A stretch of DNA of 64,000 bases from an uncultured Dehalococcoidales bacterium (GTDB taxonomy: Bacteria > Chloroflexota > UBA6077 > FW602-bin22), in the NCBI GenBank assembly GCA_964536925.1, contig CAZHZF010000007.1:5237-69236 (forward strand), given 5' to 3'. This document shows positions 23,579-29,669 of the stretch, in pieces (position 1 is the first letter of the stretch; every line of letters begins with the position of its first letter). A program made the translations under genes and the position numbers. The notes beneath the pieces were generated by a model. That model saw only the letters and a program-made list of their open reading frames with translations, had not been told where the DNA came from and made no database searches.

Positions 23579-24498
23579 GCCGCGAGCTCCAGCATCGTCC
23601 GAAACTCGCCGTTGAAGTTCCTGGCGAGCCACGCAAGGCGCGCCTCGAAGCGATCGCGATGGCCAACCGCGCACCCTGGACGGGGCAGGTCCACGAACTC
23701 CCATGGATGGCTGAGGATCACCAGGTGGCCCTGTGCGTCACCGGCGGCCTCCTGGCACGCGAGGATCTCCTCGACCGCAAGGGCGAGGTCGGTCTCCGTG
23801 AAGTCGATCACGTTGCTCACATTCAAGATCGCGAACCGCGCCCACGTCGGGATGCCGTAGCGTCTTCTCATCCGCGGCCGCGGGCTCGCGGACACCGGGA
23901 TGCGGATAAGTCCCCGCTCTCGGGTGACCAGGGGCAGAGCGCCGCGGAAGGCCGGCGCCGAGGAATCGAGCGCGAAGCCAGATTCGCGCAGCAGCGCGAG
24001 ACTCGCGACATCGCAGCAGAGGTTCGGGGCCCGAAACATCGTCGGCCGTGCCAGGCCCGCACGCGCGAAGGCCGCGAGCGCGAACTCCATTCGCTGCGTC
24101 CGTTCCGCGAGGGAGAGGCGTGGCTCGGGCGCGAACCAGAGCGGGTCGCCCCACTGCTCGTGGAGGTGGCCGTGGAGCCCGATCGCATGTCTCTCGGCCA
24201 GTTCGCGAAGTTCCGTGCCGATCGCCTCGCAGATCGACCCCTGCACGAACAGGGTCGTCCGCCAGTCCTGCGCCGCGCACATCGCGCCGAACCAGTCCAG
24301 GAACGGCGCGCACGCCGACCAGTGCTGTGGCGTGCCGGCCGATCCGAAGTCCTGTTCCACATCCACGGTCACACAGATCGTGGTCGGCCGCCTTGGGTCC
24401 CGGCGACGGCGGGGTAACCGGTTCCAGCGCGACACCCAGAGCGGCGCGTGGTGCGGCAGACGTGGCTCGCGTGCCCAGTCGAGGATCCGATCAAGCAC
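23575..24498 (-). CDS. polysaccharide deacetylase-like (CE4/DUF3473-type) protein
   Basis: ICVTVDVEQDFG and IGLHGHLHEQW resemble the D-x-E and H-x-H metal-binding signatures of the polysaccharide-locus-associated deacetylase family. It overlaps the upstream gene by 8 nt. Confidence 0.65.
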   Translation of the reverse strand: MLDRILDWAREPRLPHHAPLWVSRWNRLPRRRRDPRRPTTICVTVDVEQDFGSAGTPQHWSACAPFLDWFGAMCAAQDWRTTLFVQGSICEAIGTELRELAERHAIGLHGHLHEQWGDPLWFAPEPRLSLAERTQRMEFALAAFARAGLARPTMFRAPNLCCDVASLALLRESGFALDSSAPAFRGALPLVTRERGLIRIPVSASPRPRMRRRYGIPTWARFAILNVSNVIDFTETDLALAVEEILACQEAAGDAQGHLVILSHPWEFVDLPRPGCAVGHRDRFEARLAWLARNFNGEFRTMLELAA

Positions 24499-26833
24499 GG
24501 TGTTCGCGCGCCACCGGTCGGTAGACCTCGTCGATCAGGCGGTCCACCACGCCGCTCCACGTGAGCGTCCGCCGCGCCTCGGCCGCCGCGGCATCGCCCA
24601 GCCTTCGCGCGCGCACTGGGTCGCGGAGCAGATTCTTCAGTTGATCGGCCATCGCGGCCGCGTTGCCGATCCCGACGAGCACACCCGACTGCCCATCGTC
24701 GAGGACATCCTCGGTACCGGCGATGCGTGTGGCGATGATCGGGGCGCCGCAGGCCATGGCCTCGATGACGACCCTGGGGAGACCGCCGGTCGTCGCGGCG
24801 AACAGGAAAGCGTCGCACGCGGAGTAGAAGTCGGCCAGCCGATCGCGTGGGGACCACCCGTGGAAGGTGACCCGGGCGACCAGGCCGAGATCCCGGGCGA
24901 GTTCGCGGAGCCGTCCCTCCTCGGGGCCAGAGCCGACGATGTGGAGGTCGGCGCGCAGGGTGGGTTCGAGTGCCGCGAATGCCCGCAGGACGGTCGCGAA
25001 GTCGTTCTCAGGATTGAGCCGGCCAACGGTCAGGATCACCCGACGATCCGGGTCCAGTCCGAGCCTCTCCCGTGCGCCGCTCGTTCGCTGATACACCGCT
25101 CCGGCGGTGCCGAGCGGGATGCGGATGAGCCGATTCTGGGGTACGCCGGTGCGCCTCCACCATCCCTCCATCTCCCGCGAGGTGGCCACGACTCGGGCGC
25201 AGCGGGCCGCGGAGATTCGCGCCGCGACCCAGAGAGCCGCCGTCACCGAAGGATCGTACGGATTGTGTCCGGAGGAGATCTTCTGGTCGATGCTGCCGGG
25301 TACAGTGAGCACGACCGGGTGCCGGGTGAAGAGGCTGGCCACCGCGGTCGACATGTACTCTGGCGCGTGAACGATCGCCCGATCGAGCGCCGGGATCGAG
25401 CACGCCGCGCGCAGCGCGATGAGCGCGTGTCCGACGATGTTGCGGTACCCGAGCGGCGGAAGGCCGAATGGATGGAGGGTGACTCCTGTACCCGCCCGCG
25501 GATGGGTGGCGTAGGGCGCGACGACGTGCACCGACACGCCGCGCCGATCGAGTTCGGTGGCGAGGTCCCACACGATATCGCTGAGGCCGCTCGCGCCGGG
25601 GCGAGCAAGGTCGAGGATGTAGTCGAGGAACACGATCGGGGGAATGTCTGCACCGGTGAGCCGCGCATCCGACCGTGCCTCCGCCTCGATGGGTCCCAAC
25701 ACCTCGGCCCGGAGCCGCCGGACGATCGTGGGCCATGTGTACCGTTCGAGCGCCTGTCGATGCGCCCGCGCGGCGATCCGCGCCCGCTCCTCCGGGTCGC
25801 CGAGGGCGGCTGCGATCGTGCGCGCCCAGGCTTCATCATCCTCCGGCGACACGAGGTAACCGGTCTGTCTGTCCTCGATCGCGTCCGGCGTGCCGCCGGC
25901 GGTCGATCCCATCACCGTGGCCCGGCACGCCATCGCTTCGATCGGCACGCGCGCGAACGGTTCGCCCGTCGAGGGCAGCAAGACCAGGTCGGCGGCCCCG
26001 TAGTAGTATGGCACCTCGGTCGACGGGACCCAGTCGGTGAACGTCACCCGTTCGGCGACGCCAAGTCGTTCCGCCAGGTCGCCCAGAAACTTCCGCCGCG
26101 GCCCGCGGCCCACGATATGGAGCCGCGCCCTCGGACGTAGCGAGCGGAGACGGGCCATTGCACGGACCAGAACACGGGCGTTCTTCTCGTAGGAGAGCCG
26201 ACCCAGGAACAGCAGCATCTCCTCGTCGGCGGGTATTCCCAGGTGTGAGCGTGCCTGCAGGCTGTCGATCGGCCGGAACCTGTCCGCGTCGATACCGAGC
26301 GGCACCACCGAGACGTGGCTCGGCCGTGCACCCGTGCGGATCCACCACGCGCGCATGTGTCGGCTCAGCGCCACGACGTGACGGGCACGCCGGGCCGCGA
26401 CGAGAGCGGCGACCTTGTACACCTGCGTCGTGTACCAGTCGAAGGGGTTTCCCGAAATCTCTCGTTCGAAGATGTTCCCCGGCGTCGTGAAGATCACCGG
26501 CAGATCCGGCCGGACGATCGCCGCTACCGCGGCGCCGACGTACTCGGGCAGAAACACGATGTCGGGGCGGGGAATGCGTCGCAGGGCGCGCGCCATCGCG
26601 TAGCACGTCACGATCTGTCCGACGACGTTGCGGCGCCAGAGGCCCGGGCGATGGACGAGATGGAAGGTGACCGGGCCACTCGGCACACTCGCGTCTGCAT
26701 CGTATGCGCCGAAGAGATGCACCTCATCGCCAAGGCGACCGAGTTCCCTGCCGACATCCCAGGAGATGTCGCTGAGGCCGCTCCGGCCCGGCTGCGCGGG
26801 GTCGAGGACCCAGTCGAGGATGGCGATGCGCAG
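24491..26833 (-). CDS. tandem double GT4 glycosyltransferase (two complete GT-B modules in one polypeptide)
   Basis: Two donor-binding motifs are present: [39 protein letters not shown] and GGLPRVVIEAMACGAPIIATRIAGTEDVLDDGQSGVLV. The track ORF starts at GTG 26722, but the frame is open to 26836 and encodes the canonical GT4 first strand (L/M)RIAILDWVLDPAQPGRSGLSDISWDVGRELGRLGDEV. The only in-frame initiator candidate there is CTG 26833. Confidence 0.8.
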   Translation of the reverse strand: MRIAILDWVLDPAQPGRSGLSDISWDVGRELGRLGDEVHLFGAYDADASVPSGPVTFHLVHRPGLWRRNVVGQIVTCYAMARALRRIPRPDIVFLPEYVGAAVAAIVRPDLPVIFTTPGNIFEREISGNPFDWYTTQVYKVAALVAARRARHVVALSRHMRAWWIRTGARPSHVSVVPLGIDADRFRPIDSLQARSHLGIPADEEMLLFLGRLSYEKNARVLVRAMARLRSLRPRARLHIVGRGPRRKFLGDLAERLGVAERVTFTDWVPSTEVPYYYGAADLVLLPSTGEPFARVPIEAMACRATVMGSTAGGTPDAIEDRQTGYLVSPEDDEAWARTIAAALGDPEERARIAARAHRQALERYTWPTIVRRLRAEVLGPIEAEARSDARLTGADIPPIVFLDYILDLARPGASGLSDIVWDLATELDRRGVSVHVVAPYATHPRAGTGVTLHPFGLPPLGYRNIVGHALIALRAACSIPALDRAIVHAPEYMSTAVASLFTRHPVVLTVPGSIDQKISSGHNPYDPSVTAALWVAARISAARCARVVATSREMEGWWRRTGVPQNRLIRIPLGTAGAVYQRTSGARERLGLDPDRRVILTVGRLNPENDFATVLRAFAALEPTLRADLHIVGSGPEEGRLRELARDLGLVARVTFHGWSPRDRLADFYSACDAFLFAATTGGLPRVVIEAMACGAPIIATRIAGTEDVLDDGQSGVLVGIGNAAAMADQLKNLLRDPVRARRLGDAAAAEARRTLTWSGVVDRLIDEVYRPVAREHRA

Positions 26834-26836
26834 GGG

Positions 26837-27721
26837 TCAGCCGCCGAACGGCAGGCGCCGGGTCCCGTGGTCGCGCAGGTGAACGAGCGTCGCCTCCATC
26901 CCGGTGCGCCGCGCGCCGCTGATGGTTTCCTCGGCGCGACGGGCCAGGTGGTCCCCGATGTGGAGCAACTGGTCCTCGAGTTCCGTGCGCTGACTGGGCA
27001 GGATCGGCGGGCTGTTCACGGTCATCTCCGCGTGGATGCGGAAGATGCCGTGCGTCGTGGTGAGTCCGAGTCCGGAATCGTCCGCAATGTACCCGATGCG
27101 GGCGGGCATGCCGATGACGCTCACGCTCTTCGAGCGCAGGGGATACGACTTGGCCAGTTCACCGCTCGCGGTCGCGGCCTGTTCGGCATTCGCATGGCGG
27201 ATCATCGTCACGTTGACCGCCTCAACCAGGCGACGCAGCGTGGTCGCGGCAATGAGCGGTGTGTACTCGGCCTGCACGCCGGGACGGCCGGTGCTCGGCG
27301 CGAACTTCCATTCCTCGACCTCTGGCCACTCGAATGGAGGAGCATCGGCGACCACGCCGGCGTTCAGCCGCGTCGGATCGATGGGTTGAATCACGACCGG
27401 GGCGGAGGTCGGTCGCGCGAGCACCGTCGGTGTTGCCAGCCGGGCCCTCACCACTGCCGGCGCGGGTGCGACCTGGGCGCTGACGATCAGGCCGCCGGCG
27501 AGGATCGTGAGGAGGAGCACGGGCGTGAAGACGGCGACGATGAAGATGTCACGACGGCGGCGGAGTTCGACACGGGTGAGCGGGACATTCGGCGCTTCGG
27601 CGGGAAGCGAGAGATTGCCCAGGTCCAGCGCCGCCGCGGGATCGAAGGCGTCCTCGATCGGCGGCCTGGGAGCAGGCCGCCCGCGTCCACGCCGCGCCGG
27701 CGGCCGTCCCCTACGCGCCAA
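26837..27721 (-). CDS. hypothetical single-pass membrane protein
   Basis: TTG start at 27721 is preceded by GAGGAG about 9 nt upstream. It has an Arg/Pro-rich N-terminus, a TM helix (IFIVAVFTPVLLLTILAGGLIV) and a 200-aa external domain of unknown family. Confidence 0.65.
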   Translation of the reverse strand: MARRGRPPARRGRGRPAPRPPIEDAFDPAAALDLGNLSLPAEAPNVPLTRVELRRRRDIFIVAVFTPVLLLTILAGGLIVSAQVAPAPAVVRARLATPTVLARPTSAPVVIQPIDPTRLNAGVVADAPPFEWPEVEEWKFAPSTGRPGVQAEYTPLIAATTLRRLVEAVNVTMIRHANAEQAATASGELAKSYPLRSKSVSVIGMPARIGYIADDSGLGLTTTHGIFRIHAEMTVNSPPILPSQRTELEDQLLHIGDHLARRAEETISGARRTGMEATLVHLRDHGTRRLPFGG

Positions 27722-27885
27722 GGCGAGGTCTCCTCACGTTCTCCCAACGTCGCGCTACGCCAGCCGGAGCCGTAAGATCACGCACGTGCTGGAGCCCGTT
27801 CACGCGCTCGCCATCGCGCTCTTCGCGATCTGCCTGCTCGGGACGCTGTACCTCACAATGATCCGCCGCACCGAGCCTGACTGAT

Positions 27886-28125
27886 TCAGTGGGCCGGCGC
27901 CGCCAGAGGGACGCGCCCGGTCGCGGCGGGACGGCTCGCATCCAGCGCTCCACGGACGATGGCCGGCAGGCACGACTCGCAGAGCGGCACCCGGAACCCG
28001 GCCGCGGTCGTGAAGACCAGGCACGAGCGCCATCGTGTGCACGCATAGCAGGCCGTCTGCTGGAGATCGACACCATCTCCCCCGGGAACCGTGGGCCGGC
28101 CGGAGTCCGTGCTGGAGAGTGGAAT
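27886..28125 (-). CDS. candidate small zinc-ribbon protein (no canonical start codon; not in ORF track)
   Basis: The minus frame is open over 27889-28188 (100 codons, GC3 about 80% versus about 70% for the listed plus-strand ORF). It encodes CYAC-x19-CESC (…QQTACYACTRWRSCLVFTTAAGFRVPLCESCLPAIVRGALD…). There is no in-frame ATG/GTG/TTG before the first CxxC. An ATT at 28125 sits 7 nt after GGAGG (28133-28137). Confidence 0.3.
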   Translation of the reverse strand: MPLSSTDSGRPTVPGGDGVDLQQTACYACTRWRSCLVFTTAAGFRVPLCESCLPAIVRGALDASRPAATGRVPLAAPAH

Positions 28126-28193
28126 GTCGTCGCCTCCGGCGGAATCGTGGTGCCTATGGTGACAGGTCGTGCCGGCCCGCGCAAGGGATTAGA

Positions 28194-28535
28194 GTGAATC
28201 TCGTGCTCGTCCCGATCGTGGTGATCCTGCTCCTGCTGGCGCTCCTCGCCGCGGGCATGGCCATGGCATTCTGGTCGATGGCCATCGTGATGAAGCTGGT
28301 GATGTCCGGCTTCATCGGCGGCCTCGCGGATGCCGCCGTACCCGGTCGCCTGCCCTATGGACCTCTTGGCGCGGTCGCCGCGGGTATCGTCGGCGGATTC
28401 GTCGGGAGCGCGCTGCTCCCGACGCTGGGGCCACCGCTTTTCGGCGTGGAGATCGTGCCCACGTTTCTCGGCGCGCTCGCGGTTGTCGGTCTCTTCGAGG
28501 TCTTCGCGAACACGCGGAGTCGCGCCGAGCCGTAG
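28194..28535 (+). CDS. GlsB/YeaQ/YmgE family (transglycosylase-associated) small membrane protein
   Basis: ORF 28035-28535. GTG 28194 begins VNLVLVPIVVILLLLALLAAG...SGFIGGLADAAVPGRLPYGPLGAVAAGIVGGFVGSAL, the typical Gly-rich three-helix pattern of this family. Confidence 0.8.
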   Translation: MNLVLVPIVVILLLLALLAAGMAMAFWSMAIVMKLVMSGFIGGLADAAVPGRLPYGPLGAVAAGIVGGFVGSALLPTLGPPLFGVEIVPTFLGALAVVGLFEVFANTRSRAEP

Positions 28536-28544
28536 CTCTCCGAC

Positions 28545-29669
28545 CTAGACGAGCGCCATCTCCCGGTCGGGTGCGGCCGGCCCGGCGGCCGTTTCACCGT
28601 CGATGCCGAGGATGAACCGCTCGACACGTTCCCGCGCGATCTCATCTCGCATCTGCTCCGGAGGCGACTTCATGAAATAGGCGGACGGCCCCGTGAGCGT
28701 GCCGGAGATGCCTCGATCCATCGCCAGCTTGCAGCAGCGAAGGGCGTCGATGACGACTCCGGCGGAGTTCGGCGAGTCCCAGACCTCAAGCTTCAACTCC
28801 GCATTGAGCGGGACGTTGCCAAAGGTCGTGCCCTCGACGCGGATGTAGCACCACTTTCGGTCGTCGAGCCACGGCACGTGATCGGACGGCCCGACGTGCA
28901 CCTGCTGCGCCGGCAGGGGAACATCCAGCTGGCTCGTCACGGCGTTGGTCTTGGAGATCTTCTTCGACTCGAGGCGATCCCGTTCGAGCATGTTGAGGAA
29001 GTCGGTGTTCCCTCCGAAGTTCAACTGATACGTCCGATCGATCCGCACGCCGCGATCGGCGAACAGACGCGCGAGCATGCGATGCACGATGGTGGCGCCG
29101 ACCTGGCTCTTGATGTCGTCGCCCACGATCGGGACCCCCGCCTCGACGAAGCGGCGCTGCCACTCCGCCTGGCTGGCGATGAACACGGGGATGCAATTCA
29201 CCATCCCGCATCGCGCACTGAGAATTTGCTCGACATAAAACCTGGTGGCCGCCTCCGATCCCACCGGAAGGTAACTGACCACCACATCGGTCTCGGTCTC
29301 ACGCAGCACCCGCGCGATGTCGACTCCGGGCCCATCGAGGGGGCGCACGAGATCCTCGGTGTATCGGCCCACGCCATCCAGACGGGCACCCTGCTGGACT
29401 GGAACTCCGAGGTGCGGCACATCGGCGAAACGAGCCGTGTTGTTCGGCGCGGCGAAGATCGCCTCGGATAGGTCCAGTCCCACCTTGCCCCGATCGACGT
29501 CGAAGGCGCAGGAGAACTCGATGTCACCGATGTGATACGGGCCGAGACGGGCATGCATCAGGCCCGGGATCGGCTGATCCTCCGGCGCCTCGCGGTAGAA
29601 CGTGACACCCTGCACGAGCGATGACGCGCAGTTGCCCACACCGATGATGCCTACACGAAGTCGTGGCAC
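28545..29669 (-). CDS. ino1: myo-inositol-1-phosphate (inositol-3-phosphate) synthase
   Basis: ORF 28545-29960. GTG 29669 is preceded by GGAGG. It contains [54 protein letters not shown] and [14 protein letters not shown], characteristic of bacterial/archaeal MIPS at about 374 aa. Confidence 0.9.

Follow-up and report, generated by a model that had tools for sequence, protein, structure and literature searches.

A small, conserved zinc-finger-like gene of Chloroflexota that probably starts at a near-cognate codon

Can a reading frame without ATG, GTG or TTG ahead of its conserved motif be a gene? This question is raised by a minus-strand frame beside a GlsB-family gene in the stretch of DNA analyzed here (64,000 nucleotides from an uncultured Dehalococcoidales bacterium, hereafter the window). 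The original prediction, made from the letters alone, had left three options for this frame: it might encode a small metal-binding regulator translated from an unusual start codon, be the remnant of a gene, or be open by coincidence. A structured RNA had been named as an alternative.

Translation confirmed that the minus strand harbors a TAA stop (28191..28189), 100 sense codons (28188..27889) and a TGA stop (27888..27886), the 100 codons reading SLARAGTTCHHRHHDSAGGDDIPLSSTDSGRPTVPGGDGVDLQQTACYACTRWRSCLVFTTAAGFRVPLCESCLPAIVRGALDASRPAATGRVPLAAPAH. The other features described from the letters were also found to be correct: two CxxC pairs 19 residues apart (CYAC, 28050..28039, and CESC, 27981..27970), a TTCHHRHHD stretch (28170..28144), a GGAGG (28137..28133) separated by a 7-nt spacer from an ATT (28125..28123), the absence of any in-frame ATG, GTG or TTG ahead of the first CxxC, and a GC3 of about 80% (0.80 over the 100 codons and 0.85 in the conserved core) that exceeds the values of both overlapping listed ORFs (0.70 and 0.69). 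In a frame plot, the third-position GC signal was strong only across the approximately 55 C-terminal codons of the frame. In the 64-kb window (68% GC), 340 frames extend from stop to stop over 100 codons or more. Furthermore, the window has 28 instances of GGAGG followed after 4 to 10 nt by an ATT, ATC or ATA that opens 60 codons or more, compared to 26 to 35 at control spacings unsuited to a Shine-Dalgarno sequence (SD). GGAGG followed by a canonical start was likewise not enriched in the window, and its statistics thus lend no support to the use of SDs by the source organism. Because these statistics lie within chance, the case for a gene depends on the comparison with relatives.

A first protein search gave a single match with 95% identity, a 74-amino-acid (aa) hypothetical protein from a Lake Tanganyika Chloroflexi metagenome-assembled genome (MAG). 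The locus of this MAG is syntenic throughout with the window, the shared gene order comprising a LacI-family regulator, a myo-inositol-1-phosphate synthase, the GlsB-family gene, the zinc-finger ORF, a 294-aa protein and GT4 glycosyltransferases. In the source genome of the window, no protein is called for the zinc-finger ORF. When 1.8 billion representatives were searched exhaustively with HMMER, 7 homologues were recovered at E<=1e-10, six of them proteins of 75 to 98 aa (E 5e-14 to 1e-10) that were new relative to the first match, and a profile search retrieved 42 family members of 52 to 129 aa. All 42 are named "hypothetical," and no Pfam domains or fusions were found among them. The homology search proposed for the frame thus yielded 42 homologues, and DNA could be compared at 16 distinct loci, of which L004 and L005 were reached via the 294-aa neighbor and L014 to L021 via a metagenome scan. 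All family sequences come from MAGs or metagenome contigs. The family is apparently limited to one Chloroflexota lineage, the named source records being only Chloroflexi/Chloroflexota MAGs.

Across 43 sequences, 16 columns are invariant (T-x-C-Y-x-C-T...C-L-V-F...G...L-C-x-x-C-L...V...A), all five cysteines included, and the core motif of the family reads TACYxCTxWxxCLVF...G...LCxxCL. Between the window and L001, one of its two closest relatives, the 21 substitutions from the ATT to the stop are distributed 3/3/15 over the three codon positions (p=4e-4); synonymous changes are over-represented (Fisher p=2e-5), and dN/dS is 0.12 to 0.15. Similarly, dN/dS of the core ranges from 0.13 to 0.53 in ten pairs (Nei-Gojobori). 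Conservation at the protein level, the invariant residues and dN/dS values below 1 speak against a chance frame, and these comparisons indicate that the minus strand from 28125 to 27886 is almost certainly a genuine, conserved protein-coding gene that had escaped annotation. The features on which the proposed gene model depends are as follows.

27886..28125, minus strand: proposed coding sequence (ATT start, 79 codons, TGA stop) for a Cys5 zinc-finger protein
28123..28125, minus strand: proposed near-cognate start ATT; the homologous codon is ATT, ATC, ATA or TTG in 16/16 loci
28133..28137, minus strand: putative Shine-Dalgarno sequence GGAGG, 7 nt 5' of the ATT; GGAGG in 14/16 loci
28108..28110, minus strand: ACG (Thr6); ATG here in the closest relatives, L001 and L002 (DNA alignment)

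The codon homologous to the ATT varies within narrow bounds. It is ATT in five loci (the window, L001, L005, L015 and L018), ATC in seven (L006, L007, L009, L014, L016, L017 and L019), ATA in one (L021) and TTG in three (L008, L024 and, one codon later, L004), and in none of the 16 loci is it ATG or GTG. GGAGG lies 5 to 9 nt ahead of this start-like codon in 14 of the 16 loci, and the two others have GGAG at 9 nt (L014) or GGGGG at 10 nt (L004). The start-like codon precedes a conserved G-R-P motif by 7 to 8 residues. From the upstream stop to the first cysteine, no canonical in-frame start was found in the window, L005/L015/L018, L014, L016 or L019/L020; at least five clades are without one ahead of the domain, and in L005 an in-frame TGA stop overlaps the SD. 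The distance from start to first cysteine takes values of 23, 24, 25, 26, 28, 34 and 35 codons, and the frame is kept each time, the sole exception being L017, which has a 1-nt insertion in a T run between the ATC and the domain. Because the frame is kept through at least six changes of tail length, for which the chance would be about (1/3)^6, an untranslated tail is unlikely. Furthermore, several database proteins have called canonical starts at most one residue from the Ile column (P0025, with a TTG confirmed in L024; P0022, P0031 and P0034; P0007, P0029 and P0040). Translation thus probably initiates at ATT 28125. Among the options originally considered, it is the first that is supported, in two respects: the gene is real and under purifying selection, and the ATT behind GGAGG is its best-supported start. 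Metal binding and a regulatory role are presumed.

The insertion in L017 (L017:1800-1925) falls in a TTT run between the SD-ATC pair and the zinc-finger domain, and as a result the database protein P0037 (52 aa) begins at a GTG just ahead of the domain. The insertion could be an artifact of assembly; alternatively, the locus could be a pseudogene or belong to a lineage whose start has moved.

The gene might also be real and start closer to the domain, at a conserved hydrophobic column 7 residues before the first cysteine (GTC in the window, ATC in many relatives) or at some other near-cognate codon, in which case the tail would be a 5' untranslated region (UTR). Indeed, the tail has a dN/dS of 0.45 to 1.1 in most pairs (0.12 to 1.1 overall), being nearly neutral in several pairs, as an untranslated leader would also show, and its predicted structure has a pLDDT below 60 (mean of 46 for residues 1 to 10 and 57 for residues 11 to 20). 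In addition, GGGGGAG lies 5 nt 5' of GTC 28071 in the window, and the column is ATC in 7 loci. However, the same column also contains GTC, CTC and TTC, behaving as a hydrophobic residue rather than as a start, and no conserved SD was found ahead of it, whereas the SD-proximal ATH or TTG stays in frame through all the changes in tail length mentioned above. We therefore consider a start next to the domain unlikely and retain ATT 28125.

Still less probable, at roughly the level of an outside chance, is that the window copy is a pseudogene whose true start, the ATG of L001 and L002, has mutated to ACG. These relatives, 95% identical to the window, do have ATG at 28110..28108, where it is called as the gene start, and this difference from the ACG of the window accounts for only the relatives' copy having been called as a gene. 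However, ATG occurs at the Thr6 codon in no lineage beyond L001 and L002, and the GGAGG is located 22 nt 5' of the L001 ATG, a distance too great to serve it; on both grounds, we rejected this ATG as the ancestral start. The window copy has moreover kept every invariant residue, its dN/dS relative to L001 is as low as given above, and at least four other clades are also devoid of any canonical start. Since a near-cognate start is the norm in the family, it is not a lesion of the window copy, and the option of a decayed gene was abandoned. The check suggested at the outset, for orthologous copies initiated by ATG or GTG, thus turned up none at the homologous codon in 16 loci and, at the Thr6 codon, an ATG in L001 and L002 alone.

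Within the protein proposed to start at ATT 28125, we distinguish the following parts.

28069..28125, minus strand: N-terminal tail, residues 1 to 19; predicted to be disordered, fast-evolving, frame kept
27934..28068, minus strand: conserved core, residues 20 to 64; three beta strands and a helix in the model, treble-clef-like
28039..28050, minus strand: putative first zinc knuckle, C26-Y-A-C29; invariant in 43 sequences
28021..28023, minus strand: fifth cysteine, C35 (in CLVF); invariant
27970..27981, minus strand: second pair, C49-E-S-C52, just ahead of the helix in the model; invariant

An AlphaFold2 model based on 43 sequences, which replaced an earlier one from 8 sequences (pLDDT of 58, uninformative in Foldseek), predicts residues 21 to 60 with a pLDDT of 93 to 95. 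It contains strands at residues 22 to 25, 32 to 39 and 45 to 49 and a helix at residues 53 to 64, with the first CxxC between strands 1 and 2 and the second between strand 3 and the helix. As modeled, this combination of knuckle, hairpin and helix is a treble-clef arrangement, and it is fairly likely that the protein is a zinc-binding treble clef with C26/C29 and C49/C52 as ligands. The best Foldseek matches were archaeal and eukaryotic eL24/Rlp24 proteins (42 columns, rmsd of 2.0 to 2.2 Å, probability of at most 0.91, E 0.5 to 2), a weak resemblance below significance that is at most suggestive. The predicted finger has in common with the eL24/TRASH treble clefs the knuckle, the beta hairpin, the second cysteine pair leading into a helix and the 19-residue spacing. 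It differs from their pattern (C-x2-C-x19-22-C-x3-C) in having CxxC as the second pair, an additional invariant Cys35 and a "TxW" motif. The likeness of the Cys5 finger to the TRASH type is a presumed one. At the sequence level, the window protein and 17 family members gave only chance-level matches and no Pfam or NCBIfam zinc-finger family at E<=1, and a profile search of PDB sequences returned only spurious antibody framework matches. A DksA/TraR C4 zinc finger was also considered and rejected, given the lack of a Pfam match at E<=1 and a spacing of 19 residues as opposed to C-x2-C-x17-C-x2-C.

Upstream of the ATT, the frame remains open for another 21 codons and carries the His-rich stretch. 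In this region, all 16 loci share the pattern TTGC[G/A]N, exactly 17 nt, CA[C/T/G][C/G][A/C]T, located upstream of the gene, and T-T-G of the first hexamer is invariant among them.

28179..28184, minus strand: -35-like hexamer TTGCGC; TTGC invariant in 16/16 loci
28156..28161, minus strand: -10-like hexamer CACCAT; A2 and T6 invariant in 16/16 loci
28126..28188, minus strand: open frame upstream of the ATT, interpreted as non-coding (promoter and 5' UTR)

The SD is situated 16 to 27 nt downstream of the -10-like hexamer, or about 33 nt in L006 and L017. From these conserved hexamers, we infer that a sigma-70-type promoter is directed toward the zinc-finger gene and that transcription starts near 28149 on the minus strand; a stringent generic scan of 27600-28350 for sigma-70 promoters and terminators called nothing. 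The upstream frame is interrupted by stops in L005, L015 and L018, and between the window and L001 its substitutions are spread 1/1/1 over the codon positions, all three of them changing an amino acid. We thus dismissed the His-rich TTCHHRHHD (28144-28170) as protein sequence: it is the -10 region read in frame and overlaps the promoter-like element. Accordingly, of the frame as first described, neither the full extent of 100 codons nor the coding nature of the His-rich segment held up, given the stops in other lineages, the non-coding pattern of substitution and the overlap with the -10 element.

The conserved upstream DNA block includes an ATG that shares the frame of the gene in certain lineages but not in the rest. 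Deposited N termini of the form "M[L/G]HH..." occur in P0009, P0018, P0020, P0028, P0033 and P0036, and by sequence these are the promoter -10 block (..ATGCTTCACCAT..) translated where it happens to be in frame. The called lengths of 52 to 129 aa probably compare to a true protein of 66 to 84 aa.

We also observed GC-only palindromes (GCCGGC/GGCCGGCC), present in two copies in most loci (alignment A5) and located in the window at 28171-28178 and 28088-28096 on the minus strand. The first copy lies inside the 17-nt promoter spacer and the second at codons 9 to 11, in the G-R-P motif; some 85 to 95 bp separate the two, and the inferred transcription start, the SD and the start codon all fall between them. 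These palindromes could be candidate operator half-sites. Minimum free energy folds of single sequences often pair the two copies, a pairing that received no support from RNAalifold; if the promoter is called correctly, the upstream copy is not transcribed.

A non-coding reading, which would make the locus a structured RNA or purely a regulatory region serving the GlsB-family gene and would ascribe the open frame to the high GC content, could draw on the abundance of long frames in the window and on conserved nucleotide blocks (CTTGCG, TCACCATAG and GGCCGGCC), but it is essentially refuted by three-periodic substitutions, invariant cysteines and protein-level conservation at about 50% divergence, by an Rfam scan of 27000-29000, run as the original prediction had advised, that gave no match below E 3 (three chance-level matches, far below gathering scores), and by RNAalifold, which found 3 pairs and zero covariation in 13 aligned 5' regions.

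Two neighbors of the proposed protein-coding gene bear directly on its surroundings.

28203..28535, plus strand: GlsB/YeaQ/YmgE-family gene, divergent partner (Pfam PF04226, 23.7 bits vs a gathering score of 25.3 bits)
27786..27884, plus strand: convergent unlisted ORF of 32 codons with a single transmembrane (TM) segment; stops 1 nt from the zinc-finger stop

By tblastn, 13 further distinct loci were found to have a GlsB-family gene upstream in divergent orientation. There was no such match in L017, and L024, which was outside that search, carries a divergent 109-aa gene at the GlsB position. The divergent pair shares about 60 to 130 bp. In the window, GTG 28203 is a more likely start of the GlsB-family gene than GTG 28194, whose frame is lost in L001 through a 1-nt indel. 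By eye, a TANNNT hexamer is seen 6 to 11 nt 5' of the GlsB start in most loci (TAGAGT in the window; TACACT, TAGACT or TATAGT elsewhere), a placement that hints at a leaderless GlsB mRNA or one with a very short leader.

On the other side, the 294-aa neighbor (26837-27721, minus strand) has an Arg/Pro-rich N terminus and one predicted TM segment and belongs to no Pfam or NCBIfam family. It has four cluster-level relatives in 5.8 billion proteins, all from Chloroflexota MAGs and each time encoded just downstream of the zinc-finger gene, and a contig search with it returned a single MAG, already known. This membrane protein is limited to four lineages of zinc-finger loci and the GlsB partner is widespread, indicating that the conserved unit is the divergent GlsB/zinc-finger pair.

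The 32-codon ORF, whose start codon is a candidate one, reads VLEPVHALAIALFAICLLGTLYLTMIRRTEPD. It has a GC3 of 0.91 and a GC2 of 0.41, and its six substitutions relative to L001 cause zero amino acid changes. Homologues, with the consensus ..TDAMAVALFALTILVLVYL..RR, occur in L004, L007, L008, L016 and L024, where they abut or overlap the zinc-finger stop, and they are called as genes of 29 to 38 aa in three contigs. The ORF is missing from the L005/L015/L018, L006, L009, L014, L019 and L021 lineages and has zero Pfam or NCBIfam family matches. Farther downstream, a 743-aa ORF (24491-26722, minus strand) carries two tandem GT4 glycosyltransferase modules, as does its 788-aa counterpart in L004; the gene found at this position in L001 and L002 has only one module and encodes about 314 to 326 aa.

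Near-cognate initiation as such is already known, and what would be new here is an uncharacterized Chloroflexota family that uses it. In Escherichia coli, AUU, AUC and AUA initiate at 1 to 2% of the level of AUG, and only infC and pcnB are confirmed to use them (10.1101/063800). The AUH starts of these two genes are conserved across species and thought to limit translation in a manner dependent on IF3 (10.1101/063800; PMC13009471). The Chloroflexota family shares with infC and pcnB a near-cognate AUH start conserved among species. The proteins are unrelated, however, there is no ground for expecting autoregulation by the product here, and the start codon of the family varies among AUU, AUC, AUA and UUG.

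A closer parallel in description is cvfC1 of Staphylococcus aureus (PMC13009471), which encodes a putative zinc-finger protein of 61 aa and has a conserved AUU as its start, preceded by an extended SD. Both proteins are smaller than 100 aa and putative zinc fingers, both have a conserved non-canonical AUU behind a strong, well-spaced SD, both are missed or mis-started in standard annotation, and both are presumed to be low-abundance regulators. This likeness is one of description and not of sequence comparison, and the organisms belong to Bacillota and Chloroflexota, respectively. Furthermore, cvfC1 heads the cvfC operon, whereas the zinc-finger gene here diverges from a GlsB-family gene, and the cvfC1 start is backed by Ribo-Ret and reporters (PMC13009471), whereas the Chloroflexota gene is known from sequences. 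Similarly, dnaA of Deinococcus starts at an ATC, one of several non-canonical starts confirmed there by proteomics (PMC2830850). Like the ATC-initiated members of the present family, it has this start in a GC-rich bacterium and was noticed once canonical starts could not explain the protein; the evidence there came from N-terminal peptides and here comes from sequence comparison.

On this basis, we propose a model for the whole gene, comprising promoter, GGAGG, AUU start, zinc finger and control by a weak start, which as a whole is probably correct. A sigma-70-like promoter (TTGCGC-17 nt-CACCAT) would direct transcription from near 28149, giving a 5' UTR of about 24 nt that contains a perfect GGAGG, and initiation would occur 7 nt further on, at the AUU. 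The product would be a protein of 79 residues, in which a disordered N-terminal tail precedes a compact treble-clef zinc finger with the additional invariant Cys35. By analogy with infC, pcnB and cvfC1/ccpN, the weak start combined with a strong SD would most likely hold translation to a few percent of that of an AUG gene, and the output would be sensitive to IF3-dependent proofreading of the start codon. In the family, this combination has never been exchanged for AUG or GUG, which suggests selection for low, possibly IF3-sensitive expression. Such a low-expression design, in analogy to the known cases, suggests a regulator.

As for its role, the lack of a significant match to any characterized zinc finger leaves synteny as the only argument. 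Our guess from synteny is that the protein might be a low-abundance regulator or a metal/redox sensor, present in low copy number and tied to the divergent GlsB-family membrane stress gene; that it regulates GlsB in particular is doubtful. A bolder proposal, which we hold to be more doubtful still, is that the family has been selected against AUG and GUG, so that the level of this TRASH/eL24-like protein would report the fidelity of initiation (the ratio of IF3 to ribosomes), for instance under stress, and the protein, as a sensor of metal or redox state, would regulate GlsB via the GCCGGC palindromes. If true, this would represent a stress switch coupled to translational fidelity and particular to a Chloroflexota lineage.

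Because gene finders accept only ATG, GTG and TTG, members of this family are missing from annotations or given wrong N termini. Similar genes could be sought with a comparative signature in which a conserved promoter and an SD precede an in-frame AUH and canonical starts are lacking. The parallel with cvfC1 lends support to the view that AUU-type translational attenuation recurs among small zinc-finger regulators. Overall, these data point to a family-wide, evolutionarily kept use of near-cognate initiation beyond infC, in a little-studied phylum.
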